64,000 nucleotides of DNA from Armatimonadota bacterium (GCA_039680575.1 JBDKSP010000011.1:7861-71860); one strand, 5' to 3'; numbered from the stretch's first letter, positions 4,999 to 59,544 are shown. Numbers and translations: made by a program. Notes: generated by a model from the letters alone, not told the origin.

Positions 4999-5088
4999 GT
5001 TATATGAACCAGGCGTATCCGATTGTCAGTGCGGTAATGTTCAGACCATGATTCGGATAATCCGGATTTACATGTTCAACTGCGCTCA

Positions 5089-18120: not shown

Positions 18121-18123
18121 GCA

Positions 18124-18813: not shown

Positions 18814-18814
18814 A

Positions 18815-20750: not shown

Positions 20751-21364
20751 TGTATTTGTCCATGCTTCAGCTCAACCCGCGCTGTAAACAGGTGCAGTCT
20801 GAGATTTACGACCCTTATCAGATGCACCGCACACTCTGTAAGGCGTTCGGGGATGATGAGGAATCCTGGAAGAACGCGAGAGTGCTCTTCCGTGTAGATG
20901 AAACGAACGGAGGCTGCAAACTCTGCGCGTTGGTGCAGTCGAAATTGCGCCCCGATTGGACGAAACTGACTGTTCCCGGCAATTACCAGGTCGATGAGCC
21001 TAAATTGAAGGAAGTCCAGTTCGCTCTTGAAACAGGCCAGAGGTTGGGCTTCCGGCTCAGGGCAAATCCGACCGTAAAGCGCGATGGAAAGCGTGAAGGG
21101 CTCTATAAAGAGGAAGAACAATATGAATGGCTGAGGAAAAAAGGCGAACACGGCGGATTTACCGTGCTGAACGCGATAGCGAGAGCGGACGGTAAGCAGA
21201 AGAGCCTTACGGCTAAGGGGAAAGACGCGGTTTTACTGTCTGTGATATTCGAAGGCATACTGCAGATAACAGACCCGGAATTGTTCTTGAAAACGCTGGA
21301 GTCAGGCATCGGTTCAGCGAAAGGGTTTGGGTTCGGGCTGCTTTCCATTGCGCCGGTGAGGTAG
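20750..21364 (+). CDS. casE: CRISPR RNA endoribonuclease Cas6e/CasE
   Basis: MYLSMLQLNPRCKQ..YQMHRTL parallels the E. coli CasE N-terminus. The C-terminus is glycine-rich (GFGFGLLSI). Length 204 aa. Confidence 0.9.
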   Translation: MYLSMLQLNPRCKQVQSEIYDPYQMHRTLCKAFGDDEESWKNARVLFRVDETNGGCKLCALVQSKLRPDWTKLTVPGNYQVDEPKLKEVQFALETGQRLGFRLRANPTVKRDGKREGLYKEEEQYEWLRKKGEHGGFTVLNAIARADGKQKSLTAKGKDAVLLSVIFEGILQITDPELFLKTLESGIGSAKGFGFGLLSIAPVR

Positions 21365-21368
21365 TATT

Positions 21369-22322: not shown

Positions 22323-22590
22323 GAGTGTTCCATCCGGATTGCGGGGTGAGATCAGCCGATGGTTGATCGAACCGAAGGCAGGTGTGTTTGTCGGGAAAGT
22401 ATCAGCCATGGTGCGCGATAAGCTGTGGCAGAAAGCCTGCGAGCATTCTAAAGGGGGTGGGGTAACTATGATATATAGCACAAATAATGAACAGGGATAT
22501 ACATTTAGGACGTTTGGTGAAACATCGCGTTCTATTGTTGACTGGGAAGGCTTGATGCTCGTGAGGATAGACAATAATTCGTCATCCTAG
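22303..22590 (+). CDS. cas2: Cas2e
   Basis: 95 aa, overlapping cas1 by 20 bp. The stop codon is 1 bp from the first CRISPR repeat. Confidence 0.9.
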   Translation: MMVLILESVPSGLRGEISRWLIEPKAGVFVGKVSAMVRDKLWQKACEHSKGGGVTMIYSTNNEQGYTFRTFGETSRSIVDWEGLMLVRIDNNSSS

Positions 22591-22591
22591 A

Positions 22592-24145
22592 GTATTCCCC
22601 ACACACGTGGGGGTGAACCGCGGAGTTGCAGCGGCAAATGGCACAGATACAGGTATTCCCCACACACGTGGGGGTGAACCGCATTGGAATCGCGCTGTGC
22701 GGCGGCCACAAAAGTATTCCCCACACACGTGGGGGTGAACCGAGCCTCCAGAACCCATCCCACAGCAGTTACGAGTATTCCCCACACACGTGGGGGTGAA
22801 CCGATGTTTTCATTTCCCCTGCTCCTCCTTCAGATGTATTCCCCACACACGTGGGGGTGAACCGTTTATGCAGGCTACGGCCGATCTTTCCGCTGGGTAT
22901 TCCCCACACACGTGGGGGTGAACCGGGTCAATTCCTCATTTTCACGCACTAGTGATTGTATTCCCCACACACGTGGGGGTGAACCGGCCTTGAGCACTGC
23001 TGTTTCGAGTTCTGCCCTGTATTCCCCACACACGTGGGGGTGAACCGTCCGGGGTGTTGTGGTTTGTATCAACTCAGGTGTATTCCCCACACACGTGGGG
23101 GTGAACCGCAGCTCGAGCTTGCGGAAAAGCAGCAGGAGTTGTATTCCCCACACACGTGGGGGTGAACCGTCATCCGCAAACCCGATAGCGACGGTGTCGC
23201 CGTATTCCCCACACACGTGGGGGTGAACCGCCGACTGTCCGGGTAGATATGCTCTGCTATAAGTATTCCCCACACACGTGGGGGTGAACCGTTAGGGTCA
23301 CTGTAGGCACAATTCTGGCCTTGGTATTCCCCACACACGTGGGGGTGAACCGATATATTGTCCGCTGAACCGTGGGACGACAGCGTATTCCCCACACACG
23401 TGGGGGTGAACCGAACATACTTGCCGTTGACCATCCCCCAGCCGTGTATTCCCCACACACGTGGGGGTGAACCGAACTGTGCAGGGTATTGGATCGCCGG
23501 CGTCACGTATTCCCCACACACGTGGGGGTGAACCGGGGAGACAGAATCATGAACGAGCAAATACACAGTATTCCCCACACACGTGGGGGTGAACCGGTTC
23601 GCAGGTGGTTTCACGCATAAACTCAACCGTATTCCCCACACACGTGGGGGTGAACCGGGTCGCCACTCTTTCTGGCATTCAGCCGGTCAGTATTCCCCAC
23701 ACACGTGGGGGTGAACCGCAGTGCTCCCTGAGTTCCAGCGAAGCACCGTCGTATTCCCCACACACGTGGGGGTGAACCGGGAGTGCGGTGAACCCGCTGC
23801 CCCTCCAGACTGTATTCCCCACACACGTGGGGGTGAACCGACTGCCGTGAGCACAGAGAACGCTAAAACCGCGTATTCCCCACACACGTGGGGGTGAACC
23901 GCGTGTCAGCATTCGTTCGCGCAGCAGTGCAGAGTATTCCCCACACACGTGGGGGTGAACCGATAGTACCGGCACTGAAATACCGGTGCTGAACGTATTC
24001 CCCACACACGTGGGGGTGAACCGGACAAGGACAAGTTCCACTGCTTGGACGCTCTGTATTCCCCACACACGTGGGGGTGAACCGATGTAAAGGCGCAAAA
24101 CAATCTACACGAACTAGTATTCCCCACACACGTGGGGGTGAACCG
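22592..24145 (+). CRISPR. Type I-E CRISPR array with 26 identical 29-bp repeats (GTATTCCCCACACACGTGGGGGTGAACCG) and 25 spacers of 32 bp
   Basis: Strict 61-bp periodicity was counted directly. The repeat shares the I-E consensus architecture (G.TTCCCC...GGGG.TAAACCG-like) with a CACGTG-containing hairpin core. It is on the same strand as the cas genes. The minus-strand ORFs in the ORF track with recurring HPHVCGEY peptides are artefacts of repeat translation. Confidence 0.97.
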
Positions 24146-24161
24146 GACGGCATTGGCTTTC

Positions 24162-42448: not shown

Positions 42449-42501
42449 GCCGAGGGGTCTAGTAGGAGGAAGCTAGCCGAGGGGTCTATTAGGAGGAAGC
42501 T
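42449..42501 (+). repeat. Tandem duplication (27 + 26 bp) of the RBS-containing 5' leader immediately upstream of ATG 42502
   Basis: gccgaggggtctagtaggaggaagcta is followed by gccgaggggtctattaggaggaagct. Each copy carries an AGGAGG Shine-Dalgarno sequence. Confidence 0.8.
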
Positions 42502-43398
42502 ATGAGACGTGTTTCCAGCCATATATCATATTTGATCGTTATAACGGCTATGCTGGCGGTTTTTCTGACTATGCTGTCGATATCTGCATCTGCTCAGCAA
42601 TCATCAAGCCGGATTTTTGTCCTGGGTTCTGTTAACAAACCGGGTGAATATCCTTTTAGCGCCGGAATGACGGTAAAAGACGCAATAGAGCTTGCAGGCG
42701 GACTCCTGAACAACTACGAAAAAACATCCGCAGTGCTTGTGAGTGAAAAGAACGATAGGACTGCCATCAATTTGCAGGCAGTCTTGTCTGGTACAGAGAT
42801 CGTTACGCTTTCGGCGGGTGATACGGTCATAGTCAGGCCTGCCAGCATACGCGTCGAAGGCCGCGTGAAGGTTCCGGGTGAGTTCAACCTGAAACGTGGG
42901 ATGACGGCATCTGATGCGCTGACGCTTGCGGGCGGAGTCGATGAGAACGGGGCACGTGAAGCGACCTATGTCACAAGAAACAGCAAAAAGATCAGCGCCA
43001 ACCTCGATAAGCTGTCGTCAGCACTTCCTCTGGAACCGGATGATGTTGTGACTGTCCCGGAATATCAGGCATCGGTAACAGGCGAGATAAATCAGCCTGG
43101 TACATATAGCCTCGTACCAGGGAAAACTGCTAACCTCGATGCGCTGATACAGGCAGCGGGCGGAATTACCGCTAAGGCTGACCTGAAAAAAGTCCGAATA
43201 TCGCCGCTTGAAGGGATCGACCGGCCTACCCGCATCGTCGATGTGTCCAACGTGAGTGTGAGGCAGGCGACAAAAGTCGAATGTGGAGATGTTGCATTCA
43301 TCCCGCAAGCACAGATACATCAAAAGCGAAAGATGTCGCTGGGTAATGCTACGCAGATCACATTGATGATTTATACGCTGCTTCAGATATTTAAATAA
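42502..43398 (+). CDS. Secreted protein with three SLBB (soluble ligand-binding beta-grasp) domains; polysaccharide-export (Wza periplasmic)-like
   Basis: Signal peptide, then three repeats of about 90 aa. Each contains a V.G.V..PG.Y.......dAi..AGG motif of the kind found in Wza/GfcE periplasmic domains. Confidence 0.6.
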   Translation: MRRVSSHISYLIVITAMLAVFLTMLSISASAQQSSSRIFVLGSVNKPGEYPFSAGMTVKDAIELAGGLLNNYEKTSAVLVSEKNDRTAINLQAVLSGTEIVTLSAGDTVIVRPASIRVEGRVKVPGEFNLKRGMTASDALTLAGGVDENGAREATYVTRNSKKISANLDKLSSALPLEPDDVVTVPEYQASVTGEINQPGTYSLVPGKTANLDALIQAAGGITAKADLKKVRISPLEGIDRPTRIVDVSNVSVRQATKVECGDVAFIPQAQIHQKRKMSLGNATQITLMIYTLLQIFK

Positions 43399-45790: not shown

Positions 45791-46111
45791 GATGTAAGGA
45801 TGTAAGATGAATGGTGCAAATCTGCACCATTCTCATCCCTAAATCCTGAATTGATGGTGCGCGGTTTGCAACCGTGCATTTGAAAGAATCCCGCCATTTG
45901 TAATGGCTTTTTCTGGATTATAAATCCAGATGTTCTTTTTCGGACGCGATTGCAAATCGCATCCGATCAAAGGCGATTTAATATGCTTCGGGACCGCTTT
46001 TCGTCCCGAAGCGCGAGTCTCCACTAATCCGATAAGTTGGCTTCGGTGCAAAATACGCGCGCTGAAGCATCACTGAATCCTGAATCTTATCCTAAGTTGA
46101 GTAGATAACAA

Positions 46112-47563
46112 ATGATTGAGTACGAGCCTGTAATCGGTATGGAAGTCCATGCGGAACTCTTGACGGAGAGCAAGATGTTCTGCGGGTGCAAGGTAGCATT
46201 CGGCGGAGAGCCGAACACAAGGTGCTGCCCGGTCTGCATCGGCCTGCCGGGGTCGCTTCCGGTAATGAACGAGCGTGCGGTGCATTTTGTCGCCCGAACA
46301 GCGCTTGCGCTGAACTGCAAGATATCCGAGCACAGTATATTCCACCGGAAGAACTACTTCTACCCGGACCTCCCGAAGGGTTATCAGATTTCGCAATATG
46401 GGGAAACTCCTATCGGTATTGGTGGGTATGTCGAGATCAACGTGAACGGCAAGACCAAGCGGATCGGTATCAAGCGGGTGCACCTCGAAGAAGATACCGG
46501 TAAGCTCTTTCATGTAGAAGGCGATAAGAGCCAGATAGACTACAACAGAAGCGGCGTTCCGCTGATGGAGATCGTTACCGAGCACGACCCCGCCAAGGGG
46601 TTCGACCAGATCAACTCCGCCGAAGAAGCGCGTGAGTATCTAGTCAGGTTACGCTCGATTATAATTTATCTCGGAGTCTCGGACGGCAAAATGGAGGAGG
46701 GAAGTATGCGGTGCGAGCCGAATATCTCCATAAGGCCGAAAGGGAGCAGTGAGTTCGGGACAAGAACAGAGATCAAGAACCTGAACAGCTTCAAAGCCGT
46801 CTATGGCGGCGTGCAGTATGAAGTCGAGCGGCAGGCGAAGATCCTTAATCGCGGCGGGACAGTTGTCCACGAGACCCGAAGGTGGGATGATTCCCGTGGA
46901 GTGACAGCTGTGATGCGCAGCAAGGAGATGGAACAGGAGTATCGTTATTTCCCGGAACCGGACCTTGTGCCGCTCCAGTTCGATCCTGCATGGATAGAGG
47001 AGCAGAGAAAGCTTCTGCCGGAGCTTCCGCAAGAGAAAAAACGCCGGTTTGTCGAGCAGTTCGGGATACCCGATGCCGATGCCGAGGTACTGACGGACTC
47101 GAAAGCCCTGGCTGCGTTCTATGAGACGGCTGTTCAGGACTACCATGACCCGAAAGTTGTCGCAAACTGGGTTATGGGTGATTTCCTGAGGATGCTTAAC
47201 GCAGCCGGTTTGGATGCCGACCAGTCGAAGATCGCTCCAGAGCATATTGTAGAGATGCTGAAACTCATAGACAACGGGACGATCAGCGGAAAGATAGCGA
47301 AAACCGTCTTTGCTGATATGTTCGAGACAGGAAAACGTCCTGAAGAGATCGTCAAAGAAAAGGGACTTGTCCAGATAACCGATGAGAGCGCTATCGAAAC
47401 TGCAGTAGACCAGGTGTTGAAAGATAACCCTGCCGAAGTCGAAAAATACCGTGCCGGAAAGCAGGAGTTGATGGGGTTCTTCGTCGGCCAGGTGATGCGT
47501 TCTACCAGAGGGAAGGCGAACCCGGGCACAGTCAATAAATTGCTTAAAGAAAAACTCGCATAA
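46112..47563 (+). CDS. gatB: Glutamyl/aspartyl-tRNA amidotransferase subunit B
   Basis: [24 protein letters not shown] start and a C-terminal GatB/YqeY domain. Length 483 aa. Confidence 0.95.
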
Positions 47564-47642
47564 TATTCTGGACATAGCACGGAACGGATTGTGTTCAGCT
47601 GCAAAATACAGGGAAGATTTGCTTTATTGGATGAGGTGTTGA

Positions 47643-48479
47643 ATGGAATCGATAGGTGAAGCACTTAAAGCTCGACGGGCCGAAAAAGGGTTCAGCCTTA
47701 AGGATGTTTTTGAAGCGACCAAGATAACCATGCAGAACCTTGCTGCTCTTGAGGAAAATCGCTTCGATGCGTTCGCCAACAAGGTCTACGCAAGGGCTTT
47801 TTTAAGGGATTATGCTAATTTTCTGGGGTTGGACAGCACTGAGATGCTGCAGAACTATGAATCGGAATGGGTGACATCTACTCCTGTGCCGGTGGTTCAG
47901 AAGAAACGTTCGCCTGTCGCGGCGGTTATAATCGTCGTATTACTGCTTGCGGGGCTTGGTGCCGGAGCTTATTACTATTATCCAAAATATGTAAATTCGA
48001 TGGATAAGAAACCTGCCGCCACGCCGGTTACGCAGAAACCTGAACCTAAACCAGATGTGAAGCCAACACCTGTAACTGCTCCGAATGGCACAGCCGCTAA
48101 ACCTAAACCTGGAAACAACCAGGTCAACCCGGCTGTTCCTGTTGCAAACGGTGCAATTCCAACCAGCCAGCCAGGGAAACCTGCAGCTAATGGCACTGAT
48201 AAACCTGCCCAGCCTGCCAAGAAACCGGCTCCCGCTGTGCTACCGGGCCAGGTAAGAGTAGAGTTGACGGCGCGCCAGGATGTATGGGTTCACATCAAGA
48301 CTGATGGTGAGACGGCGATTATCAAGACATTGAAAGCCGGAGAGAAGGCAGCTGTCGCAGGCAAGGTCGTCTCCGTAAGAGCCGGAAGCTCGGGCGCGCT
48401 CGATGTAACCGTGAATGGAAAGAAACTTGGCAAGTTCGGTCCTGCTGGCCAACCGACGACCAGAACGTTCAAGCCTTAG
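47643..48479 (+). CDS. RodZ-like HTH (XRE) domain membrane protein
   Basis: N-terminal HTH_XRE, a single TM helix (AAVIIVVLLLAGLGAGAYYY), a Pro/Ala/Lys-rich linker and a C-terminal beta-rich domain. This matches the RodZ layout. Confidence 0.65.
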   Translation: MESIGEALKARRAEKGFSLKDVFEATKITMQNLAALEENRFDAFANKVYARAFLRDYANFLGLDSTEMLQNYESEWVTSTPVPVVQKKRSPVAAVIIVVLLLAGLGAGAYYYYPKYVNSMDKKPAATPVTQKPEPKPDVKPTPVTAPNGTAAKPKPGNNQVNPAVPVANGAIPTSQPGKPAANGTDKPAQPAKKPAPAVLPGQVRVELTARQDVWVHIKTDGETAIIKTLKAGEKAAVAGKVVSVRAGSSGALDVTVNGKKLGKFGPAGQPTTRTFKP

Positions 48480-48505
48480 TTTAGAGAAATAGAAATAGGA
48501 TTAAG

Positions 48506-48547
48506 GGGAATGGTGGAGATTTCCGCCATTCCCTTTTCGCGTTTTTC
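48506..48547 (+). terminator. Rho-independent terminator after the rodZ-like gene
   Basis: Stem gggaatgg / ccattccc followed by ttttcgcgttttt. Confidence 0.5.
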
Positions 48548-48720
48548 GTGCTTCCTCGCGCATTTCGCGATTCAAAACTGACTGCTGTCCTCCGATGTTT
48601 AGCACTCATACCCCACGGGAAGATAAAAAGAGGGCGAATGGCTTCGCGATACTTTGGTACGTGATGTTCAAGACGCTTGAAACGTCGTAAGCTCCTACCG
48701 ATCTGAGGAGGGAAGTTGAA

Positions 48721-49329
48721 ATGGAAGATGAGATCCATGTTCAGCGAGAGGAAGAAGCCGGTCGAAGAGGTGGCGCCGCATCAGCGTATGCAGGCGCATA
48801 TGCCCAGCCGGTTGAGCGTGGAATTCTATTAAAAGATAGAGTTAGGTGGGCTTCGGTCTGGGGCGGTTATCTTGTAGCGTTCGCGCTCCAGCTCTGGCTT
48901 ACTGTCCTTGGATTTGCCATTTTTGGTCAGGGGTTGGGTGCAGCAACAACTTCAGTGACGACAGGCCTGGTAATTTGGGCTGGAGTCGCAGCCCTGATTG
49001 CGCTTTTCGTAGGAGGACTCCTAGCAGCAAGGTTAGGTGGAATCGCTGGAACCGATAATGGCATATACAACGGCGTAGTGCTGTGGGGTCTGTCATTTGT
49101 TATCTTGATGGTCCTTGCATCGCTCGGCGCAGGAGGAGTGCTCGGCGCAATGCTTGGACAGACTGGTGGAGGCGCTCCAACAACACCTGGAGCAACATCG
49201 ACAGCTCTTGGAACAGCTACGACAGGAGCGTGGTGGTTCTTCATTTTCCAGTTCCTGGCATTAGTAGCGGCAGCCGCAGGCGGTGCCCTTGGTGCTCGCC
49301 CGGCTCCAGAAGAGGAAGCAAGCCGGTAA
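48721..49329 (+). CDS. Hypothetical Gly/Ala-rich membrane protein
   Basis: 202 aa with about 4 TM helices. A + strand terminator lies immediately downstream at 49361. An alternative minus-strand ORF (48927-49508) was rejected. Confidence 0.4.
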   Translation: MEDEIHVQREEEAGRRGGAASAYAGAYAQPVERGILLKDRVRWASVWGGYLVAFALQLWLTVLGFAIFGQGLGAATTSVTTGLVIWAGVAALIALFVGGLLAARLGGIAGTDNGIYNGVVLWGLSFVILMVLASLGAGGVLGAMLGQTGGGAPTTPGATSTALGTATTGAWWFFIFQFLALVAAAAGGALGARPAPEEEASR

Positions 49330-49360
49330 CAAATAATTATCCTGAATTGAACTTGGTTTA

Positions 49361-49391
49361 GGGGCGGATCTACAGGGTCCGCCCCTTTTTC
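49361..49391 (+). terminator. Rho-independent terminator
   Basis: Stem ggggcgga / tccgcccc followed by a ttttt tract. Confidence 0.5.
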
Positions 49392-49531
49392 GATTCTACG
49401 GGTGAATAAGGAGTCAAACAAAAGGAAATAACCATCGGCACGGATAAGTGGTCTCAGGAACAAGAAGATAGCAAGTTGATCAGCAAGAGCGTTATCCATG
49501 GGGATCATGAATGACGCTGGTTAGGACGAAA

Positions 49532-50314
49532 ATGGCAATACTTATCAGTAATGACGATGGTATCCACTCAGAAGGGATACTTGCACTAAAAAATGCTCTT
49601 CAAGAGCTTGGCAGAGTAGTTGTAGTTGCCCCGGACAGGCCGAGAAGTGCCTCAGGACACTCGATAACGCTTCACAAACCGCTTCGGGTAGAGAAAGTGC
49701 GGATGCTCGACGGTGATTTCGGCTATGCCACGAACGGGACGCCGTCGGACTGTGTCTCACTCGGTGTGCTGGATGTCGTAGGCGAAAAAGTCGACCTCGT
49801 CGTCTCAGGTATCAACCGCGGACCGAACCTAGGCTGGGACCTTACATACTCCGGAACCGTATCCGCTGCTATGGAAGGCGTTGTCATGGGCGTGCAGTCT
49901 TTTGCTATCTCGGTGGCGTCTTACAAAGAGGATGCCGGATACGACTACGCCGCGAAGTTTGCTGTATTTATGGGTAAATTGCTTCTCGAAAACCCGCTTC
50001 CTGAAAGCGTGTTGCTCAGTGTAAACGTACCGGGCATTCTCCCGGATGAAATCAGAGGGATAGAAGTCACCCGGCAGGGTAAAAGGCACTACGCGGGACG
50101 GATCGAAAAACGGACTGACCCTATGGGGCGGGCTTACTACTGGCTCGGCGGCGATATGCCGCTTGATAACCTGGAAGAAGGCACCGATGTGAAAGCCATC
50201 GCGGATGATAAAGTCTCTGTTACGCCCATTCATCTTGATCTGACGGGGTATCCGGCGCTCGATATAGTGAAAGGGTGGGGCGTAGAGTCATTTAAATATC
50301 GAACAGGCAGTTGA
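49532..50314 (+). CDS. surE: 5'/3'-nucleotidase SurE
   Basis: [19 protein letters not shown] is the SurE hallmark. AGGA lies 9 bp upstream. The ORF could alternatively start at 49511. Confidence 0.88.
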
Positions 50315-50357
50315 TGTTATAAATATATCCACAGTTAATAACGGAGGAATTGGCAGG

Positions 50358-51092
50358 TTGGATAAAACAATTCGAGTAACGGTATGGAACGAGTTCCGGC
50401 ACGAAAAGGACCTGAATGACAAGACTTCGAAAGTGTATCCTGACGGGATACATACGGTTATCGCAAAGAATCTCAGCTCTCAACCCGGGTTTGTTGTGCA
50501 GACGGCGACACTGGATGAGCCGGAGCACGGGCTGACTGAGGAAGTGCTTAAAAACACGGACGTTTTGATCTGGTGGGCTCATATGGCGCATCATGAGGTC
50601 TCTGATGAGATCGTGGAGCGGGTTCATCAGCGGATTATTACAGACGGTATGGGGCTGATCGTCCTGCACTCAGGGCATTTTTCAAAAATATTCAAAAAAC
50701 TGATGGGGACCGGATGCGACCTCAAGTGGCGCGAAGTAGGTGAAAAGGAACGGATTTGGGTCATCGACCGGGCACACCCGATAGCGGAAGGACTGCCGGA
50801 CTATTTCGAGCTCCCCCAAACGGAGATGTACGGCGAGCCGTTCGGTATTCCCAGCCCCGACGAACTGGTTTTCATCAGTTGGTTCCAGGGTGGAGAGGTC
50901 TTCAGAAGCGGCTGCTGCTGGCACAGAGGCATGGGCAAGGTTTTCTACTTCCGTCCGGGACATGAGACCTATCCGATCTTCTTCAATGAGACCGTGATGA
51001 AGGTCATCTCGAACGGTATCAAGTGGGCTGCCCCGACGTGCGGACCCGCGTTCATACAGGGCGAAAGAAAACCGCTTGAGAAGCTGGGCTGA
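50358..51092 (+). CDS. ThuA-like protein (class I glutamine amidotransferase-like fold; trehalose-utilisation family)
   Basis: 244 aa. The overall pattern (VTVWNEF..E, LIWWAH, LIVLHSG) is consistent with the ThuA family. The assignment was made from memory of the family, not from a search. Confidence 0.55.
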
Positions 51093-51200
51093 GATTTAGA
51101 ACCGCGGAGACGCGGAATGAATGGAAGCGCGGATTTAGCGGATTTTGCGAATGGTGGAGATTTACGGCACCTAACCCTATGCTCCGGCATCGCAGTTCAT

Positions 51201-51271
51201 CTACCCCGTGGACCTACTGGACCACGGGGGTATTAACCGTGGACCTACCGGACCACGGGGTAGAAGCACGA
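51201..51271. repeat. REP-like imperfect palindromic element, duplicated unit
   Basis: ctaccccgtggacctactggaccacggggg / tatt / aaccgtggacctaccggaccacggggtag aagcacga. Each half forms a hairpin. A related single-unit copy is at 56798-56836. Confidence 0.75.
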
Positions 51272-51404
51272 GTCTCCCGGAAGGGCAAATGAGGCATCTC
51301 TGATGCCGGGTGATCGGTTGAGGTCGAATAACCGGGATCAGAGATCCCTATCCGGCCTATGCGGGCTGGATTGCAAATACGCCCGAGAAAAAGGAACAGG
51401 TTCA

Positions 51405-51986
51405 ATGTCAAGTAAAGGTATAGCAACTGTAGGTGAATATCTGTACTGGTCGTACGCCAACTTGGGCATGGCACACGCAGCGTTGTCTAGTGGCGCTCAT
51501 TCTTATGGCCGGGTTCACTATATAATCCGCAACAAGCTCTATCGTGGGCTGGTCAACGGTACGATGCATCTCGGCTCACTAAAGGAAGACGAGAGGTTGA
51601 AGCTTGTTATGCCACAAGCTTGCTGTTATTGTGGTTCCATAACAGAACTGACGCTGGATCACTTGATACCAACAAGCAAGGGTGGAAAAGATACAGCAGA
51701 CAACATTGTCTGGGCGTGCAAGTCATGCAATAGTTCCAAGGGTGCGATGGATGTGCTGGAGTGGCACGAAAAGACGAGCAGATTCCCATCGGTATTGCTG
51801 CTCCGACGTTATCTGAAACTTGTTATCGAGTTTTGCGATTGCAACGGATTAATGGAATCAAACCTAAATGATCTGCTTCAGCTTCCATTTTCTCTTAGGT
51901 GCATACCTCAAGAGTTTCCCGAACTTAATACATTGAAGTTATGGGTTATTCCTATCTGCAATGGTAGCTTAGTCTCACCGCTGTAG
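51405..51986 (+). CDS. HNH endonuclease-domain protein
   Basis: CCYCGS...LDHLIPTSKGG..DNIVWACKSCNSSKG is an HNH motif with Cys4 zinc ligands. AAGGAACAGG RBS. The start was trimmed from the ORF maximum of 51303 to ATG 51405. Confidence 0.7.
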   Translation: MSSKGIATVGEYLYWSYANLGMAHAALSSGAHSYGRVHYIIRNKLYRGLVNGTMHLGSLKEDERLKLVMPQACCYCGSITELTLDHLIPTSKGGKDTADNIVWACKSCNSSKGAMDVLEWHEKTSRFPSVLLLRRYLKLVIEFCDCNGLMESNLNDLLQLPFSLRCIPQEFPELNTLKLWVIPICNGSLVSPL

Positions 51987-52136
51987 CAGTGTTAATGTAT
52001 ACCTAAGATTCTGTCAGAGTTTTCACCGCGACAAATTCCCTCCCTCCATGCTAAAATAACCTAAAGAGTTTCAGGCGATTGGCTGCTAACTGAACAGCTG
52101 AGAGTCGATAAGTATAACGAAATTAGAGGTTTTGCA

Positions 52137-52790
52137 ATGTCGCATCATCATGATCACGGCTGCGATTGCGGTTGTGAGGAAAACATCAAAGTACTCTTCC
52201 AGGGAGACAGCATTACGGACTGTGACCGAAGCCGCGATGACCTGAAATGTTTGGGCCATGGCTACCCAATGTTCATCGCCTCCCGGTATCTGGCGAAACA
52301 TCCCGAATATCCGGTGGAGTTCATAAACCGAGGTGTCAGCGGCGACCGTTCGCGTGACCTTAAGGCTAGGTGGGACAAGGACTGCATCGAGATCCAGCCC
52401 GACCTGGTGTCTATTCTTGTCGGAATCAACGATGTCTGGCGCAGGTACGACAACAATGACCCGACATCTGTTGACCAGTTTGCCGATAACTGCCACGATA
52501 TCCTTACGAGAACGGTAGAATCGACCGATGCCGGAATCATCCTTCTGGAGCCATTCCTTCTTCCGGTCATGGATGAACAGGATGCATGGCGTGAGGACCT
52601 TGATCCCAAGATTCAGGTAGTCCGGGCGCTGGCGCGCGAGTTCGATGCTTCGCTCATTCCGCTGGACGGTTTGTTCGCCCAAGCCTCAACAAAGAGAGAA
52701 CCCGAGTTCTGGTCTGCTGACGGCGTTCATCCCACCTTTGAAGGTCATGCACTGATTGCTCAGGCCTGGCTGGATGCTGTAGATATTTAA
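52137..52790 (+). CDS. SGNH/GDSL-family hydrolase
   Basis: Block I GDSIT, block III GxND (VGINDV) and block V DGVHP..GH. The N-terminus is unusual: MSHHHDHGCDCGCEEN. Confidence 0.75.
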   Translation: MSHHHDHGCDCGCEENIKVLFQGDSITDCDRSRDDLKCLGHGYPMFIASRYLAKHPEYPVEFINRGVSGDRSRDLKARWDKDCIEIQPDLVSILVGINDVWRRYDNNDPTSVDQFADNCHDILTRTVESTDAGIILLEPFLLPVMDEQDAWREDLDPKIQVVRALAREFDASLIPLDGLFAQASTKREPEFWSADGVHPTFEGHALIAQAWLDAVDI

Positions 52791-52815
52791 AAGAAAGGCT
52801 GCCTGAGTAGAGTAT

Positions 52816-53784
52816 ATGCTTTTAGAATACAATCACCCGTCAGTCAGATTGACCGGACGCTGGTACTGCGATTCGGAGAAACGTGCTTCCACCGTCTGCA
52901 CAGGGTCGAGTATCGATATTGCATTTAAAGGCGGATACGCCCTGCTTTTCTTCGATACGTCGACCAACATCGATCCGTTTCCGCATCTCTGGTTGGAACT
53001 CGATGGAAATGGAAGGGTCGAAGCGCCTCTCGACCGTATACTCAGAGTCGAGGCTGAAGGACAGGGACAACATCACCTCAAAGTCATCTTCAAATCTGCC
53101 GTCGAGCTTCAAAACCGCTGGAAAGAGCCGATTCAAGCTGTAATTCGCTTCAAAGGAGTAGAGGTAGAAGACGCAGCAGAGCTGTCTTCGGAAGAGAAGC
53201 CTGTAATCGAGTTCGTAGGGGATTCGATTACCGAGGGAATTCTTATCGATGTAGAGCACTGCCCAGCAGCAAACTACAACCAGAGAATATATCAGGATGA
53301 CGCATGCGCTACTTATGCATGGCTTGCAGCCGAGAAGCTTTCGATGCAGCCGGTGATGATGGGGTTCGGCAGAATCGGTGTCACGATAGATGCGAACGGC
53401 GGAGTGCCTGTGATTCAGGAGTCCTATCCGCTTTGTTATGAAGGAGCGCCGCTCACGGATAGTAAACCCAAAGCGATAGTCATCAATATCGGCACGAATG
53501 ATATGTCTGCACCGCTGGATGACTTCAAAAATGGTTATATTGCCCTGCTGAAAGCGATACGTTCGAAAAACCCCGATGCAGGGATATTTGCGTTATCTCC
53601 GTTTATCGGCTATTTCGAGGAAAGCCTGCCTGGTATAGTCGCTGAATACAACGATACGTGCCACGATGATGTCAAAGTTATCAGCACGGCAGGATGGCTG
53701 CCTAAAGAGCCCATGCACCCGCGGAGAGACGGGCACAAACGCGCGGGGAAACTCCTGGCGGAACAATTGGCAAAATCGATATAA
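52816..53784 (+). CDS. SGNH hydrolase with an N-terminal beta-sandwich domain (CE2-like carbohydrate esterase architecture)
   Basis: The C-terminal half has the GDSITEG and GTNDM blocks. The roughly 120-aa N-terminal domain precedes it. Confidence 0.6.
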   Translation: MLLEYNHPSVRLTGRWYCDSEKRASTVCTGSSIDIAFKGGYALLFFDTSTNIDPFPHLWLELDGNGRVEAPLDRILRVEAEGQGQHHLKVIFKSAVELQNRWKEPIQAVIRFKGVEVEDAAELSSEEKPVIEFVGDSITEGILIDVEHCPAANYNQRIYQDDACATYAWLAAEKLSMQPVMMGFGRIGVTIDANGGVPVIQESYPLCYEGAPLTDSKPKAIVINIGTNDMSAPLDDFKNGYIALLKAIRSKNPDAGIFALSPFIGYFEESLPGIVAEYNDTCHDDVKVISTAGWLPKEPMHPRRDGHKRAGKLLAEQLAKSI

Positions 53785-53847
53785 GCAAGAGGCAGTCCTG
53801 TAATTCAAAAACGGGGCTGCCTCACATCATATTCTCAGTGGCTGAAC

Positions 53848-54372
53848 CTACTTCACGCCCAGCTTGGCAAACTCAGCTTTCAGTGTATCTGCGCTTACTT
53901 CACCGATGAATATCGCCTTGATTACTCCGTCTTTGTCGATGATAAAGGTAGCTGGAACACCCTCGATACCGTAATTCTCGATCACATCGGCACCTGCGTC
54001 CGTTCCCGCGAATGCGTTCTGGTATTTGACGGAGTATTCCTTTACGAATTTTTGAGCGCTTTCAATGCTGCCATCTACGCTTACGCCGACAACATTTATT
54101 CCCTTGGATTTGAGATCGTCGTATACTTTGTTCAGGATCGGAGCCTCATTCTGGCAGTGAGAACACCAGCTTGCCCAGAAAGCCAGCATGGTGGGTTTAT
54201 TGGTATAGTCGGACAGCTTAATGGTTGATTTCCCATCGACACTGCCGAGCGAGAAATTCGGAGCCTTCTCGCCCACGGACACGGCCGCTGAAGCCGTGGG
54301 GGCGAGGACCAGCATAACAGTTACTACCAGCACTAATGCCGATGCCAAAGCCGACCTGTTATATAGCATCAT
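53848..54372 (-). CDS. TlpA-like periplasmic thiol:disulfide oxidoreductase
   Basis: Signal/anchor sequence followed by a thioredoxin fold with WASWCSHCQ (a CXXC active site). Confidence 0.8.
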   Translation of the reverse strand: MMLYNRSALASALVLVVTVMLVLAPTASAAVSVGEKAPNFSLGSVDGKSTIKLSDYTNKPTMLAFWASWCSHCQNEAPILNKVYDDLKSKGINVVGVSVDGSIESAQKFVKEYSVKYQNAFAGTDAGADVIENYGIEGVPATFIIDKDGVIKAIFIGEVSADTLKAEFAKLGVK

Positions 54373-54490
54373 ATCTCACCTACTGCTAACAGCATTGCCC
54401 CACTTGTAGTACTGTTACCCGTTTATTGTTGCAATTGCAGCATTTGAATAAATGGGATAGTGCTGACGGCTGAAAACTGAATGCTGATAG

Positions 54491-56773
54491 CTAACGAAGC
54501 AGTTCTCTGAGCAGGAATGCGGCGCCCTGTTTATCGAGAGGTTCGTTGTTGTTACCGCATTTGGGCGATTGGACGCATGACGGGCAGCCGTCCTCGCAGC
54601 GGCAGTCTTCTATGGCTCTCAGAGTGGCAGCCAGAACTTCATCCAGCCGGTAATATGCCGTTTCGGATATGCCTACTCCGCCGGGGTGGGCATCGTAGAT
54701 GAAGATAGCGGGCAGGTTCGATACATCGGGATGAGCCGGGTGCGACACGCCGCCGATGTCCTGCCGGTCGCACATAGCGAAAAGCGGTAATATCCCGATG
54801 GCAGCGTGTTCTATCGCATGGATACTGCCCGCGAGGTTGAACCCTCTTCCAACGAGTTTACCGGCAAGCTCCTGTGGGATCGAAAACCAGACCGATTGCG
54901 TCGGAAAATCGATCTCTGGCAGGTCGAGCGGCACATGCTCGATCATCTCGTCGGTGAACAGCTTTTTGCGCCTGAAACCGGTCACCTTGCTCGTGACCTG
55001 CACATCCCCCTGATAGGCTGTGGTCTTGAAGAAAGGTTTTTCGCCGAGTGTTTCTTTCTTCATGATCCAGGTCATAGAGCTTGGCACGGTGTAGTAGTTC
55101 AAATCGGCGGGATGCACATACGCCGTTCTTTCGCTTACATCCAGCTTTTCGACGATGTAGGACTCGCCGCCGTGAAGGTAGACCGCTCCCTGGTGGATAG
55201 TCTCGAAGGCGTTGGTCGCGTCGACCGTTCCGAGGAAAGTCATGCGCCTCACGTCGACAATATTATAGCTGTCGCTCGATGTCGAACGGATGTTGACCTC
55301 TTTGGCCGGGTAGGTGTCTCCGGTCCAGTACCATCTGCCTCGATACGCGAGCTCACCGGCTTCACCGAGCGTTGCAAGCACTTCGTATAGCCGTTCGCCG
55401 AAGAGCGCCACTTCATCATTTTCGATAGGCAGCTCATAAGCCGCGCAAAGAGCGTGCGCGGCAAGAAGATATGGGTTTTCCGGGTCGATTATCGCTTCCT
55501 CATGTGTGTGTTCGAAGAAATAATCGGGATGGCGCATCAGAAACTGGTCAATAGGGTTGTCGATGGCGACAAGGACTGCGAGCGATGATTCTTTGGTCCG
55601 CCCGGCGCGTCCGGCCTGCTGCCAGGTACTTGCTATAGTGCCGGGATAGCCCGTCATAATCGAGGCGTCGAGGTTACCGACATCGATCCCCAGTTCGAGC
55701 GCCGTTGTGCTTGTCACTCCGAGCAGATCGCCTCTGAACAGCCTGTGTTCGATCTCCCGCCGCTCTTCCGGCCTGTAACCGGCCCTGTAGGACATGATTT
55801 TGTCCGCTGCAGGCGAATGGTGGTCTTCCAGCGACTTTTTCGCGTATCGGAGGATTAGTTCAGCGCTTTTGCGTGCGAGAGTGAAGACTATTGTCCTGAC
55901 TCCGCTTTCGACCAGCTTGATAAAGATGTTGACGGCTTCCGTATTGGCGCTTTTTCGCTCGCCGTTTTGCCCGATAAGCGGAGGGTTCCAGAATATGAAA
56001 TACTTTTCGCCGGATGGAGAAGTGTCCTCATCTATGACTCTGGCTTCGAGCCCCGTCAGAGATCTGAAATGATCGCTGGGGTTGGAAATAGTTGCCGATG
56101 CGCTGATGAACTGCGGGTTTGTGCCGTAGTGCGCAGCAATTCTTCTCAGCCTGCGGATGATATCCGCGACATGCGACCCGAACACACCGCGATAGGTGTG
56201 AATTTCATCAATTACCACGTATTTCAGGTTCCTGAAGAACGATGCCCAGTTAGTGTGATACGGCAGAATGCTGACATGGAGCATATCCGGGTTGGTGAGT
56301 ATTATGTGTGAGTTCCGCCTGATCTGACCTCGCAGGTAAGACGGAGTGTCGCCGTCATAGGTAGCTGAACGCTGCGCTGCTTCGATGGGATACCTTTTGA
56401 TTTTGCCCAACTGGTCCTGAGCGAGAGCTTTTGTTGGGAATATATAAAGCGCGCGCGCATTTTGGTCATCAATGAGCGTTTCCATCACTGGGATGTTGTA
56501 GCAGAGCGTCTTTCCTGAGGCTGTGGAGGTGACGACGACCACGTTTTCGCCACGGCGTGCAGCATTTACCGCTCCGGCCTGGTGCGCGTACAGCTCGAGC
56601 ACCCCGTCGTTTTTGAGCGCTCTTTCTATTTCATCCGGCAGAGGATCATCCAGATTGCCGAAAACAGCGGGTCTCGCGGGGATATGCTCGATGTGGACTA
56701 TCTGTCCGCGATAATCGGGATCATTCTTCAACCTCTCGATAAATTCGTACGCGCGCAAGTAAAATCGCTCCAA
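54491..56773 (-). CDS. DEAD/DEAH-box helicase with a C-terminal DUF1998 zinc domain (MrfA/YprA-like)
   Basis: Motif I TSTASGKT, motif II VVIDEIHTY, and a C-terminal CRCEDGCPSCVQSPKCGN four-Cys cluster. Total length 760 aa. Confidence 0.85.
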   Translation of the reverse strand: MERFYLRAYEFIERLKNDPDYRGQIVHIEHIPARPAVFGNLDDPLPDEIERALKNDGVLELYAHQAGAVNAARRGENVVVVTSTASGKTLCYNIPVMETLIDDQNARALYIFPTKALAQDQLGKIKRYPIEAAQRSATYDGDTPSYLRGQIRRNSHIILTNPDMLHVSILPYHTNWASFFRNLKYVVIDEIHTYRGVFGSHVADIIRRLRRIAAHYGTNPQFISASATISNPSDHFRSLTGLEARVIDEDTSPSGEKYFIFWNPPLIGQNGERKSANTEAVNIFIKLVESGVRTIVFTLARKSAELILRYAKKSLEDHHSPAADKIMSYRAGYRPEERREIEHRLFRGDLLGVTSTTALELGIDVGNLDASIMTGYPGTIASTWQQAGRAGRTKESSLAVLVAIDNPIDQFLMRHPDYFFEHTHEEAIIDPENPYLLAAHALCAAYELPIENDEVALFGERLYEVLATLGEAGELAYRGRWYWTGDTYPAKEVNIRSTSSDSYNIVDVRRMTFLGTVDATNAFETIHQGAVYLHGGESYIVEKLDVSERTAYVHPADLNYYTVPSSMTWIMKKETLGEKPFFKTTAYQGDVQVTSKVTGFRRKKLFTDEMIEHVPLDLPEIDFPTQSVWFSIPQELAGKLVGRGFNLAGSIHAIEHAAIGILPLFAMCDRQDIGGVSHPAHPDVSNLPAIFIYDAHPGGVGISETAYYRLDEVLAATLRAIEDCRCEDGCPSCVQSPKCGNNNEPLDKQGAAFLLRELLR

Positions 56774-56797
56774 ATAATATGCTTCCGGGATAACATC

Positions 56798-56836
56798 CTA
56801 CCACGTGGACCCACTGGACCACGTGGAGAAGCACGA
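56798..56836. repeat. REP-like palindromic element, single unit (same family as 51201-51271)
   Basis: ctaccacgtggacccactggaccacgtggagaagcacga shares the flanks ctacc..cgtggacc and ggaccacg.gg.agaagcacga with the 51.2-kb copy. Confidence 0.75.
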
Positions 56837-57068
56837 TATTCACTAAACTAGGGTATTATGCCCTTATCGAGGGTGGAGGTCAAGCGGAAAAGCGAGGTTC
56901 AGGGGGTAGGGGATGATAAGAATACTGGAGAAAACCGGTATATCTAGCAGTTGACATTTCGCTATGCTGATGATAGCCTTAGCAAGCTGCCGCTAAATGT
57001 GGCAGAAACGAATGCAGCTAATTTTCAGACACCGCATATAGTATTTTTATGGGGAACAGGAGTGAATC

Positions 57069-57764
57069 ATGGTATATTCTACTTTACGCTCAAGATTGTG
57101 CAGCGTGGTTATCTTAATTTTCATACTGCTTTGTTTTACCGCACTTCCAGTTAGCGCCGCGCAAGTATACTGGGCGGACTGGATTAACGGTACGGTGGGC
57201 AATAACGGGTCTGTATCCGGTGTAATCAATTTACCCGGCAAGACATTGAGCTTGAGATATACTGGGCAGTCATACTTCATCACGACATCCGGCGGCACGA
57301 ATTACTGGAATCCTTCTACGCCGTACGTCAGCGCTATGGTCGGCAATCCGCCACCGGCGTCGGATATCATCGCCATAAGCGACACCTCTATGAGGACTTT
57401 GACATTCTCTGAGCCGGTACAGAATCTATTCCTGGCGTTCGTGAGCCTGAATGGCAATGGATACAAGTTCAATCACGATTTCGAAATCGTAAGTACCGGC
57501 AGGGGATATTGGGGCGACGGAACAGTCGTCAGAGAAGACTTGGGCGGAAATCTATATGAGTTACGCGCGACAAGTAATGAACCGCATGGTGTGATACGGT
57601 TCAAGGATCCTGTATCCTCACTGTCATGGACATGCAATGTAAATGAGAATTGGCACGGCTTTACAGTCGGTACATACAATGTGCCTGAACCCGGCTCGTG
57701 CGTTGTGCTGGGAGGCGGCTTAATGAGCCTGCTCGGATACGCTCTACGCCGCAAGAGAAGCTAA
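57069..57764 (+). CDS. PEP-CTERM sorting-domain protein
   Basis: Signal peptide. The C-terminus is VPEPGSCVVLGGGLMSLLGYALRRKRS. Confidence 0.7.
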   Translation: MVYSTLRSRLCSVVILIFILLCFTALPVSAAQVYWADWINGTVGNNGSVSGVINLPGKTLSLRYTGQSYFITTSGGTNYWNPSTPYVSAMVGNPPPASDIIAISDTSMRTLTFSEPVQNLFLAFVSLNGNGYKFNHDFEIVSTGRGYWGDGTVVREDLGGNLYELRATSNEPHGVIRFKDPVSSLSWTCNVNENWHGFTVGTYNVPEPGSCVVLGGGLMSLLGYALRRKRS

Positions 57765-57885
57765 TCCCTTCAAGGCAAAATACAGATCTACACTAGCCCC
57801 AGGTTTGCAGGAATGCATGCCTGGGGCTATTATCATGTTCACTCTGTAACCTCAGCTATTGATTCCACGTCATTACTTAATATAT

Positions 57886-57965
57886 ATTAAGTATATAGAG
57901 AAGTGATTATGCATTAAGTATATAGAGAAGTGATTATACATTAAGTATATAGAGAAGTGATATGG
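57886..57965 (+). repeat. Tandem direct repeat: 2 full 27-bp units and 1 partial unit (ATTAAGTATATAGAGAAGTGATTAT[G/A]C), immediately upstream of the RND operon
   Basis: Unit 1 at 57886-57912 and unit 2 at 57913-57939 differ by 1 nt. A partial unit 3 runs 57940-57965. An 18-bp perfect palindrome acttaatatatattaagt (57874-57891) overlaps the first unit. Confidence 0.85.
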
Positions 57966-57975
57966 AGATTTGTAG

Positions 57976-59544
57976 ATGAAGAGATGGTTGAGCATTGTAA
58001 TGCCTGTTTTTTTGTTAGGTTCGCTTGTCACCTGGCGGATTGCACAAAAAAAGGCTGAGAACGCCTCCCAGTCACAGCAAATGGGTGCAAGGATGAAGGG
58101 ACCGGTATCGGTTGCTCTCGGAAAAGTCGAAATCAAAGACCTTTCAAGCACATTTGATGCGATGGGCTCGGTTGAAGCGCCTATGAGCGTAAAAATTGCT
58201 CCGAAAGTTACCGGACGCATAGATTATCTTGATGTCCATGAAGGCGACCGGGTGCGAAAAGGCCAGGTCCTGGTGAAGATAGACGCATCGGACGTGGAGG
58301 CTCAAGTTCAACAGGCAATGGCTGCGGTGGCAGAAGCGCGCTACCGCCTTGCTCAGGCACAGATGACTCAAAACCCCACAGATGTTTCGATAAACACCCA
58401 GATAACTCAGCAAGGATCAGCGCTCGCAAGCGCCGCTGCCGATTACGATCAGGCGCAAAAGTCCGCCGATGCGCAGATTTTGGCAGCCGAGGCCAACTTA
58501 AAAGACTCTGGATCGAAAATAGAGAACGCAAAAGCCGCAGTAAACAGTGCTCAAGCCAATGTAGACAACGCGCAGACGAAATTTGATAGATCCCAGAGAT
58601 TGTATGAGAAAGGCTACGTAGCCGCTCAGGATGTGGATGACACCAAAGCTGCTCTGACTGTGCAAAAGTCAAATCTGGAAATCGCAAATGGACAGCTCAA
58701 ATCAGCAATTCTCCAAAAGGATGCCGTTGCAGAGCAGCTCAATGTGACGAAAGCTAAAGCGGTATCCGACATAGCGGCAGCTAAAGCCAAGCTCACTCAG
58801 ACGCAGGCATCTTTGAAATACGCTACGGCAAACACATCGCAGAAGAGCGCATATCGGCAGAGCATCGCTGCACTGAAAGCCTCTGTGGATGCTGCTATGG
58901 CAGGTCTCAGAAGCGCACAGGCTAAGCGTCAGGATACCATTCTTAGATCGCCTCTTGACGGCTTCGTTACCGGACGCTACGCCGACCCCGGCGCAATCGC
59001 TTCGCCCACTCAGCCAGTGCTCGCAGTGCAGTTCACCAAGCAGATATGGGTGTCAGTATCTGTCCCGGAAGACATCTGTTCAAGAATTCATATAGGCCAA
59101 CCATCCAAAATCAACTTCGATGCTTTTCCGGATAAAACATTCAGTGCGAGTGTGATACAGATCAACCCATCAGCCGATTCGATGAGCAGGCAGTTCACCG
59201 TTCGCGTCATAATGGCTAACCCGGACAGCATGTTCAAGCCGGGAATGTTCACACATGTCTCTATAGAGACTGACCGCGTGCATAATGCAGTAGTAGTGCC
59301 GCGCGAAGCCGTACAGACTGACCGTGACGGCAAGTACGTGATGACTGTTGGGGCGGACAAAACGGCCAGACGTGTTCCTGTATCACCGCAGGGTGGGGAC
59401 GACAGCTTTATCAACATAGGAAATGCCCTGAAACCCGGCGACAGCGTAATTATTATGTCTGCGACGCCGGTTAAGGACGGTCTGAAGGTTAAGACCGGAG
59501 AGCAGCGCGGCAAGGGAGGCTTTGGGAAGGCAGGGCGTAAATGA
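57976..59544 (+). CDS. Efflux RND transporter periplasmic adaptor (HlyD/AcrA family)
   Basis: TM anchor, long coiled-coil, then beta-barrel and MP domains. There is a 4-bp overlap with the downstream pump gene. Confidence 0.85.
   Translation: MKRWLSIVMPVFLLGSLVTWRIAQKKAENASQSQQMGARMKGPVSVALGKVEIKDLSSTFDAMGSVEAPMSVKIAPKVTGRIDYLDVHEGDRVRKGQVLVKIDASDVEAQVQQAMAAVAEARYRLAQAQMTQNPTDVSINTQITQQGSALASAAADYDQAQKSADAQILAAEANLKDSGSKIENAKAAVNSAQANVDNAQTKFDRSQRLYEKGYVAAQDVDDTKAALTVQKSNLEIANGQLKSAILQKDAVAEQLNVTKAKAVSDIAAAKAKLTQTQASLKYATANTSQKSAYRQSIAALKASVDAAMAGLRSAQAKRQDTILRSPLDGFVTGRYADPGAIASPTQPVLAVQFTKQIWVSVSVPEDICSRIHIGQPSKINFDAFPDKTFSASVIQINPSADSMSRQFTVRVIMANPDSMFKPGMFTHVSIETDRVHNAVVVPREAVQTDRDGKYVMTVGADKTARRVPVSPQGGDDSFINIGNALKPGDSVIIMSATPVKDGLKVKTGEQRGKGGFGKAGRK

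Follow-up and report, generated by a model that had tools for sequence, protein, structure and literature searches.

Gene content of the locus

We analysed a 64,000-nucleotide (nt) stretch of DNA from an Armatimonadota bacterium (GCA_039680575.1 JBDKSP010000011.1:7861-71860; hereafter the window), in which a short palindromic repeat occurs at two intergenic sites: copy A, a duplicated hairpin downstream of thuA, and copy B, a single hairpin upstream of a helicase gene. To the left of copy A lie genes that Pfam and NCBIfam assign to a RodZ-like protein (47643-48479), SurE (49511-50314) and ThuA (50358-51092). The genes between the two copies, and the first gene to the right of copy B, are as follows (lengths in amino acids, aa):

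51405-51986, + strand: solitary HNH endonuclease gene, 193 aa, the same as NCBI gene call P0241
52137-52790: GDSL/SGNH hydrolase gene
52816-53784: second GDSL/SGNH hydrolase gene
53848-54372, - strand: gene for a ResA/TlpA-like thioredoxin
54491-56758, - strand: gene for a DEAH helicase with an MrfA zinc-binding domain, 755 aa, identical to NCBI protein P0001, above the TIGR03817 cut-off
57069-57764, + strand: gene for a 231-aa protein

Further right are genes for an RND adaptor and an AcrB-type pump. The initial annotation had named the same genes between the copies (HNH endonuclease, two SGNH hydrolases, TlpA and an MrfA-like helicase), a list that Pfam and NCBIfam both confirm, and had correctly placed surE and thuA to the left. 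It had also given the HNH gene as 51303-51986 and had called the gene on the right a PEP-CTERM gene; the former starts at 51405, which makes the thuA-HNH spacer 312 nt, and the latter has only a faint match to a PEP-CTERM tail. Homologs of the HNH protein are 181-198 aa long throughout the family.

A family of palindromic hairpin units

The two copies comprise three hairpin units:

51201-51229, + strand: hairpin unit A1, CTAC-CCCGTGG-A-CC-TACT-GG-A-CCACGGGG, with a covariance-model score of 51.9 bits
51233-51263, + strand: hairpin unit A2, in the same orientation as A1 and 7 nt after it, ending in GTAG
56798-56829, + strand: hairpin unit B, CTAC-CACGTGG-A-CC-CACT-GG-A-CCACGTGG

Their sequences are in place on the + strand, as expected from the earlier description of two imperfect palindromes in direct orientation, the first duplicated and the second single. 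Each unit is built from an 8-base-pair (bp) stem, an A·A mismatch, a CC/GG step and a YACY loop, which together form a core hairpin of 26-29 nt. Copies A and B have in common a 5′ CTAC and a 3′ AGAAGCACGA as flanks, and their similarity reaches further in the 5′ direction than had been described (TATGCTyCCGG...CATC). The core CGTGGACC-NACN-GGACCACG, searched for in the window with the pattern CGTGGACCNACNGGACCACG, has exactly three matches (51207-51226, 51238-51257 and 56804-56823), all on the + strand; dinucleotide-preserving shuffles lead one to expect 0.05 matches, and none of 100 shuffles reached three. Independent repeat detection in the window grouped the three units as one family (D4).

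Both as RNA and as DNA, the hairpin regions fold far better than shuffled sequences do (z from -3.4 to -6.2), and the RNA hairpins are stable on both strands (-17 to -44 kcal/mol); A1 and A2 can also fold together into a single long hairpin. Across six units of the family, each with 10 pairs, 96.6% of cells are paired, compared with 21-48% in slid controls. Compensatory changes are present in two of the ten stem pairs (n = 6 units), one a C-G to A-T change that distinguishes unit B from A1 and the other at the outer pair of a unit in contig L063, described below; in this small sample the changes are suggestive of stem pairing that has been kept. When a covariance model of the six units was run on the window and on approximately 150 kb of other Armatimonadota loci, it detected no additional copies, degenerate ones included. 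Rfam returned no match at gathering thresholds, and permissive thresholds gave only sub-threshold look-alikes of miRNA precursors.

Comparison with the closest relative

Two Logan contigs from the source sample (SRR15035646) correspond to this part of the window: L133 equals window 45983-51313 at 100% identity, and L144, which has the same gene order and encodes an identical helicase, is placed by its coordinates at window 51286-57941. The closest different genome, found in SRR15035648, is represented by contig L134, which carries the helicase gene (product 95% aa identical), and contig L143, which runs from GatB to ThuA (ThuA 79% identical). By blastn, L134 matches the window at 52022-56773 (89% over 4,756 nt), 56849-56905 (93%), 56931-56988 and 57054-57831, which defines the following feature, with the HNH gene outside it:

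52022-57831: segment colinear with the closest relative (blastn of L134), holding the genes for the two SGNH hydrolases, the TlpA-like protein, the helicase and the 231-aa protein

Within this segment, window 56777-56848 (about 71 nt, the whole of the copy B element) faces only about 11-12 unrelated nt in L134. L134 thus lacks copy B, and the sequence after thuA in L143 lacks copy A, so that the presence of the repeat varies between close strains.

On the left, the homology stops at 52022, 36 nt past the HNH stop codon, with copy A lying about 750 nt further left. Beyond this break L134 has three unrelated open reading frames (ORFs; 139, 134 and 267 aa) that match nothing in Pfam or PADLOC. 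Of the 267-aa ORF, which L134 has in full, window 52022-52056 keeps the last approximately 30 nt, including the stop codon; the window lacks its remainder as well as the 134- and 139-aa ORFs, which marks a strain-variable breakpoint beside the HNH gene. On the right, the common gene order ends after the 231-aa gene, where the window continues into the RND pump and L134 into genes for a SASA-domain protein and a protein with a faint GH18 match. L134 also has an extra segment of about 790 bp (4714-5124) between the helicase gene and the homolog of the 231-aa gene, with a 136-aa ORF that matches no family, where the window has 26 nt; it constitutes a second insertion or deletion difference in this intergenic region.

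The segment common to both strains (52022-57831) is therefore offset from the segment bracketed by the hairpins (51272-56797). More distant helicase orthologs, at 69-78% identity, have entirely different neighbours and no genes in common with the window, and are uninformative as a test of synteny; gene order therefore appears to be fluid in the group generally. The G+C content of the block is ordinary (0.50-0.55), and both codon usage and G+C content at third codon positions (GC3) are normal for the two SGNH, TlpA-like and helicase genes, with the HNH gene alone slightly low in G+C (0.46). No integrase or transposase was seen among the window ORFs scanned, and no tRNA was found. The 5.5-kb stretch between the copies is ordinary resident DNA and not a unit, and the copies flank its genes by chance of spacing rather than by function.

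Copy A and the region downstream of thuA

Copy A lies in the thuA-HNH spacer together with two further palindromic features:

51153-51161, + strand: 5′ arm of a thuA-downstream hairpin, GGTGGAGAT, located from the alignment of the window with L143
51292-51349, + strand: further inverted repeat with 25-nt arms, 80% complementary

The window and L143 agree for about 50 nt downstream of thuA. Beyond these, L143, the sequence of which stops 172 nt past thuA, has the thuA-downstream hairpin intact (GGTGGAGAC-N18-GTCTCCACC), with a T-rich stretch after it. In the window the GGTGGAGAT arm and its 3′ partner GTCTCC (51272-51277) are about 110 nt apart, with the doublet in between. Because the hairpin is uninterrupted in L143 and its two arms are held apart around the doublet in the window, copy A looks like an insertion into the loop of a pre-existing hairpin, a reading drawn from the alignment.

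Hairpins with stems of the GAATGGTG type lie shortly past the stop codons of gatA, the rodZ-like gene and thuA (window 45809-45832, 48492-48547 and 51149-51169, respectively); of these, the 48492-48547 hairpin has a T-run behind it and resembles a normal terminator, and the one after thuA has no nearby 3′ arm. The two source-sample contigs, L133 and L144, overlap by only 28 nt (window 51286-51313), just past copy A, which implies a branch of the assembly graph, from a repeat or from strain variation, at the start of the inverted repeat at 51292-51349.

Copy B and the helicase leader

Unit B is part of a larger composite element, beside which lies a promoter-like site:

56777-56848, + strand: composite element B, with an outer stem TGCTTC...GAAGCA, a small arm GGAT-AAC-ATCC, the GGACC hairpin and the tail CGATATTCACTAAAC
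56855-56883, - strand: sigma-70-like promoter match TTGACC-17-CATAAT facing the helicase gene, 10/12 matches, just outside element B

Element B folds as a three-way junction of outer stem, small arm and GGACC hairpin (z = -6.2). It sits between two divergent genes, those for the helicase (- strand) and the 231-aa protein (+ strand), and adjoins no gene 3′ end. The 57-nt segment that holds the promoter-like site (56849-56905) is the one retained at 93% identity in L134. If this site is the helicase promoter, copy B would be transcribed as part of the helicase 5′ leader, and this leader is predicted to be lengthened from roughly 30 to roughly 90 nt and to gain a hairpin of -22.6 kcal/mol. Copy B is 40 nt upstream of the helicase start, and copy A is 142 nt upstream of the HNH start.

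No T-run follows copy A or copy B on either strand, and a terminator scan lists neither copy. A role as bidirectional terminators, one of two possibilities raised for the repeats in the initial annotation, is not supported, because copy B is at no 3′ end, lying instead between two gene starts and downstream of a conserved promoter-like site, and because the T-tract is missing at both copies.

Copies at other loci and mosaic construction

A scan of genome contigs with the loose pattern CGTGGACCNNNNGGACCACG gave at least 117 stretches, almost all of them chance matches in coding sequence of high-GC Actinomycetota. Among the matches listed, only contigs L063 and L110 carry the flanks of the family, and both come from the metagenome-assembled genome ‘Armatimonadota bacterium 8_bin.138’. 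L110 1204-1294 matches window 51191-51277 at 90% identity over 92 nt, including the doublet, the 7-8-nt spacer and the tail, and lies between an ORF like Gfo/Idh/MocA-type oxidoreductases and a 223-aa outer-membrane-like ORF. L063 has a single unit between hutH-like and hutU-like ORFs (at both loci the functions are read from the translations only). Neither locus has a gene in common with the window; the element is therefore dispersed, and tied neither to the block nor to the HNH gene. All four loci (thuA/HNH, helicase/231-aa gene, L110 and L063) are intergenic.

Around the core, the copies incorporate parts of other repeats that also occur on their own, three of which have the following positions in the window:

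45985-46030, + strand: intact palindrome of a second family, GCTTCGGGAC-N8-GTCCCGAAGC, then the tail GCGAGTCTCCACTAATCC; Logan contig L133 starts here
51178-51200, + strand: degenerate left arm and loop of the second family (ATGCTTCGGGAC-CGCAGTTC-GTCC...), with the sequence TATGCTCCGGCATCGCAGTTCAT, from sequence comparison
51263-51277, + strand: tail GAAGCACGAGTCTCC, the same as the tail after a different hairpin at 46008-46022 and after the L110 doublet

The palindromic modules in question are the GCTTCGGGAC...GTCCCGAAGC hairpin and a GGTGGAGAC...GTCTCCAC hairpin with a tail. The second family is intact at window 45985, at L063 7616 and at L134 1814. In copies A and B and in L110, the GGACC hairpin lies between a degenerate left half of this family (TATGCTyCCGG...) and the right end GAAGCA, and at copy A the loop CGCAGTTC is identical to the loop in L063. 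The tail GAAGCnCGAGTCTCC(ACTAATCC) is found after the hairpin at 45985-46030 as well, and at the ends of L134 and L143. Since the tail and the second palindrome family recur independently, the element is a mosaic, which at these four loci could reflect either nested insertion or the spread of a unit that was already composite.

The hairpin apex in metagenome contigs

Scanning metagenomes with an exact-core pattern that specifies the YACY loop gave 15 stretches, a sample biased by the pattern. None of the 15 has the Armatimonadota flanks, and several are coding, including a collagen-like Gly-Pro repeat; a scan of viral sequences gave 0 matches. Beside the exact-pattern matches, the covariance model found extra copies in unrelated contigs of higher G+C content, in which the apex is unchanged and the outer stems covary (for example, GCTGCGGACCTACTGGACCGCAGC and GGTGCGGACCTACCGGACCGCACC; GCTGCGG...CCGCAGC and GGTGCGG...CCGCACC). 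Contig L119 has hairpins at 9476-9497 and 11107-11138, between polX-like/recO-like and deoC-like/trpA-like ORFs; L132 has them at 494-525, 641-671 and 1781-1812, on both sides of an ORF for a GalE-like epimerase (identified by eye from translations, as in L119); and L127 has them at 2078-2108 and 2238-2268. In this pattern-biased sample, the distribution hints that more than one lineage has the apex in common as a recognition feature.

No transposase is present between or next to the hairpins in L119 and L132, or next to those in L110 and L063. A REPtron architecture around the L132 and L119 hairpins was considered and rejected, the genes that they flank being GalE-like in the one and polX/recO-like and deoC/trpA-like in the other.

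HNH homologs and other features of the window

An association between the HNH gene and the hairpin was also considered and set aside: homologs of the HNH gene are found in other contexts without the hairpin, with different neighbours at every locus examined, and no HNH gene is near the hairpins of L110 and L063. In another Armatimonadota contig, L145 (7840-7935 compared with 8545-8650; the same in L146), a 79%-identical HNH homolog stands just past proS, and after it the last approximately 90 nt of proS occur again, in a copy that is 86% identical. On sequence, this duplication of the proS end suggests that the HNH gene may be a mobile cassette, inserting close to the 3′ ends of genes. In contig L147 (8560-8900), downstream of its HNH homolog, a unit of about 60 nt with the hairpin GGTCCAGGAA-ATCC-GTTCCTGGACC occurs twice, about 300 nt apart, and represents another local palindromic repeat family; a gene for an IS110-family transposase lies about 2.5 kb further downstream (11410-12480).

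Several other repeats are present in the window. Upstream of the RND adaptor gene, at 57881-57988, an AT-rich unit of 27 bp (TATAyATTAAGTATATAGAGAAGTGAT) is present three times in tandem, and contig L144 ends within this array, at about window 57941 by coordinate mapping. A 27-bp tandem duplicate (42449-42502) lies upstream of a gene for an SLBB-domain protein. A 161-nt direct repeat, 84% identical (1340-1500 and 1968-2128), extends across two adjacent ORFs that match no family and that are probably paralogs. The window also has a complete type I-E CRISPR-Cas locus (13934-24147), with Cas3, Cse1, Cse2, Cas7, Cas5, Cas6e, Cas1 and a likely cas2; after the cas genes, its CRISPR array (22592-24147) has at least 26 repeats of 29 nt (GTATTCCCCACACACGTGGGGGTGAACCG) with a 61-nt period.

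Interpretation and alternatives

We read the element as a small, insertion-polymorphic repeat like repetitive extragenic palindromic (REP) sequences and bacterial interspersed mosaic elements (BIMEs), or as a very short miniature inverted-repeat transposable element (MITE), restricted to one Armatimonadota lineage, and assign this reading a probability of about 0.7. That the repeats form a family of REP or MITE type had already been put forward from the sequence of the window, and this proposal is upheld: the element is a short extragenic palindrome, absent at the matching sites in a close relative and present at unrelated intergenic sites in another Armatimonadota genome. We infer that it would spread in the form of single-stranded hairpin DNA and that existing hairpins may be its preferred landing sites. 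The enzyme moving it would be encoded in another part of the genome, the obvious candidate being a transposase like the REP-associated tyrosine transposases (RAYTs) or an HUH tyrosine transposase of the IS200/IS605 type. The local effects of the element would then be incidental, copy A splitting the hairpin downstream of thuA and copy B giving the helicase mRNA a stable stem-loop in its 5′ leader.

Several observations weigh against this reading. The window ORFs scanned include no RAYT or other transposase, so the mobilizing enzyme is purely conjectural. The polarity of the CTAC/GTAG flanks is opposite to that of canonical 5′-GTAG REPs. The empty site in L134 is not a clean cut, given its approximately 12 unrelated nt, with no clear target-site duplication visible, and the difference may instead reflect loss of the element by deletion in the relative. 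The loci counted are two in the 64-kb window, at least two in 8_bin.138 and none in about 17 kb of the closest relative. Finally, the statistics of compensatory change come from six units only, and 16 of 500 column shuffles reach the observed value.

The initial annotation had raised the alternative that the copies are att-like direct repeats ending a horizontally acquired 5.5-kb island. The copies are indeed in direct orientation with about 39 nt in common, the genes between them are functionally mixed, and the G+C content of the HNH gene is slightly low; nonetheless, this idea has next to no chance. The close relative keeps the genes on both sides of copy B while lacking the hairpin itself, and homology on the left breaks after the HNH gene, at 52022, rather than at the hairpin end at 51271. 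Neither an integrase nor a tRNA accompanies the block, no deviation in G+C content, GC3 or codon usage sets its SGNH, TlpA-like and helicase genes apart, and the same repeat occurs elsewhere without such a block. The helicase orthologs, at 55-95% identity, are all from Armatimonadota or an unclassified bacterium where their source is named, consistent with vertical descent. Scarcely better placed is the idea that the palindrome is an operator for a DNA-binding regulator, such as a damage-response repressor, acting on the HNH nuclease and the MrfA-like helicase. Both copies are just upstream of a DNA-processing gene, copy B is downstream of a promoter-like site, and the core has a GGACC-N4-GGACC repeat inside the inverted repeat. 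The orthologous helicase promoter region in the close relative nevertheless lacks the site, HNH homologs in other Armatimonadota have no upstream hairpin, and the other copies occupy gaps between oxidoreductase-like and outer-membrane-like genes and between hutH and hutU.

Hairpins kept mainly as functional RNA elements, either as bidirectional terminators or as stabilizers of mRNA 3′ ends, would account for folds that are stable on both strands and for the position of copy A and both 8_bin.138 copies downstream of a gene, and REPs have been reported to act in this way (PMC3733652). We nevertheless regard this explanation as improbable, given that copy B adjoins no 3′ end, that neither strand has a T-run, that the terminator scan passes over both copies and that the 95%-identical helicase ortholog does without the element. 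Little probability also attaches to the suggestion that GGACC-YACY-GGACC is a widely distributed structured motif recognized by a conserved protein, of which the Armatimonadota copies would be one local expansion. It is favoured by the occurrence of the same apex, with covarying stems, at intergenic positions in the unrelated contigs L119, L132 and L127, and by the fact that no Rfam family covers it, but those contigs were found with a biased exact-core pattern, their copies are few and no associated protein was found; the distribution is also compatible with ordinary REP superfamilies. A related view, which we consider unlikely, is that the GGACC-YACY-GGACC hairpin is not an ordinary REP but a module of its own, a hairpin-targeting mini-element with an apex that crosses phyla and a tag polarity opposite to that of RAYT-type REPs, inserted by an enzyme specifically into the arms or loops of other palindromes.

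With the element read as a REP/BIME-like repeat, a false lead is removed, there being no 5.5-kb island, and nested palindromic repeats of this kind are documented in Armatimonadota; a full-text literature search found no paper naming Armatimonadetes together with ‘repetitive extragenic palindromic’. Short-read assemblies break at such repeats, which also make promoters and leaders differ between strains by their insertion and are usable as typing markers. Nested hairpins, and an apex common to unrelated metagenomic lineages, are small leads on the choice of target.

Comparison with known systems

Set against known classes of element, the hairpin-bracketed block does not fit an integrated genomic island with att repeats, having no integrase or tRNA and no atypical composition and not being absent as a unit from the close relative; likewise, neither copy combines a GC-rich hairpin with a U-tract at a gene 3′ end, as an intrinsic terminator would. 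MITEs (for example, Correia/NEMIS and RUP) are a closer match in that the element is short and non-coding, has 6-bp inverted termini (TGCTTC/GAAGCA in copy B), is polymorphic in its insertion and can land in a 5′ leader. It differs from them in its length of about 70 nt, which is much shorter than typical, and in having no related insertion sequence (IS) element; the comparison with the empty site of copy B reveals no clear target-site duplication, the sequences there being highly diverged.

Canonical REPs begin with an unpaired 5′-GTAG head. The element has a CTAC/GTAG tetranucleotide at its stem ends, but its tags are arranged as 5′-CTAC-stem...stem-GTAG-3′ and pair with each other; CTAC precedes the first unit at three loci and is CTAA in L063, GTAG follows copy A only, and the tag is accordingly ambiguous. 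REPs number tens to thousands of dispersed copies in a genome, and the genome typically encodes a RAYT flanked by the REP; the loci seen here are two in 64 kb and at least two in 8_bin.138, with no RAYT among the window ORFs scanned. In other respects the likeness is close, REPs being short imperfect palindromes of 20-40 bp that can form a stem-loop. The element is a 26-29-nt imperfect palindrome with a stem of 8-11 bp and an internal mismatch, and it occurs both as singletons and as closely spaced dimers. Under REP definitions that include the GTAG- and CGTC-tagged superfamilies (Di Nocera et al. 2013, PMC3733652), it qualifies by its size, by being an extragenic palindrome and by being present in one close strain and absent from another.

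The doublets of copy A and L110, with their 7-8-nt spacer, fold as one long hairpin, as do the REP doublets known as REPINs (Bertels & Rainey 2011, PMC3116915). Their two units are direct rather than inverted, as the loop asymmetry indicates (both read GGACC-YACY-GGACC on the same strand), and the doublet is therefore not a REPIN in the strict sense. The mosaic character is that of the BIMEs of Escherichia coli, in which REP hairpins are combined variably with other short motifs: here the tail GAAGCnCGAGTCTCCACTAATCC and two other hairpin families, that of GCTTCGGGAC and that of GGTGGAGAC, recur in different combinations. Whereas BIME modules simply alternate, those of the Armatimonadota element appear nested, with hairpins interrupting the arms or loops of other hairpins.

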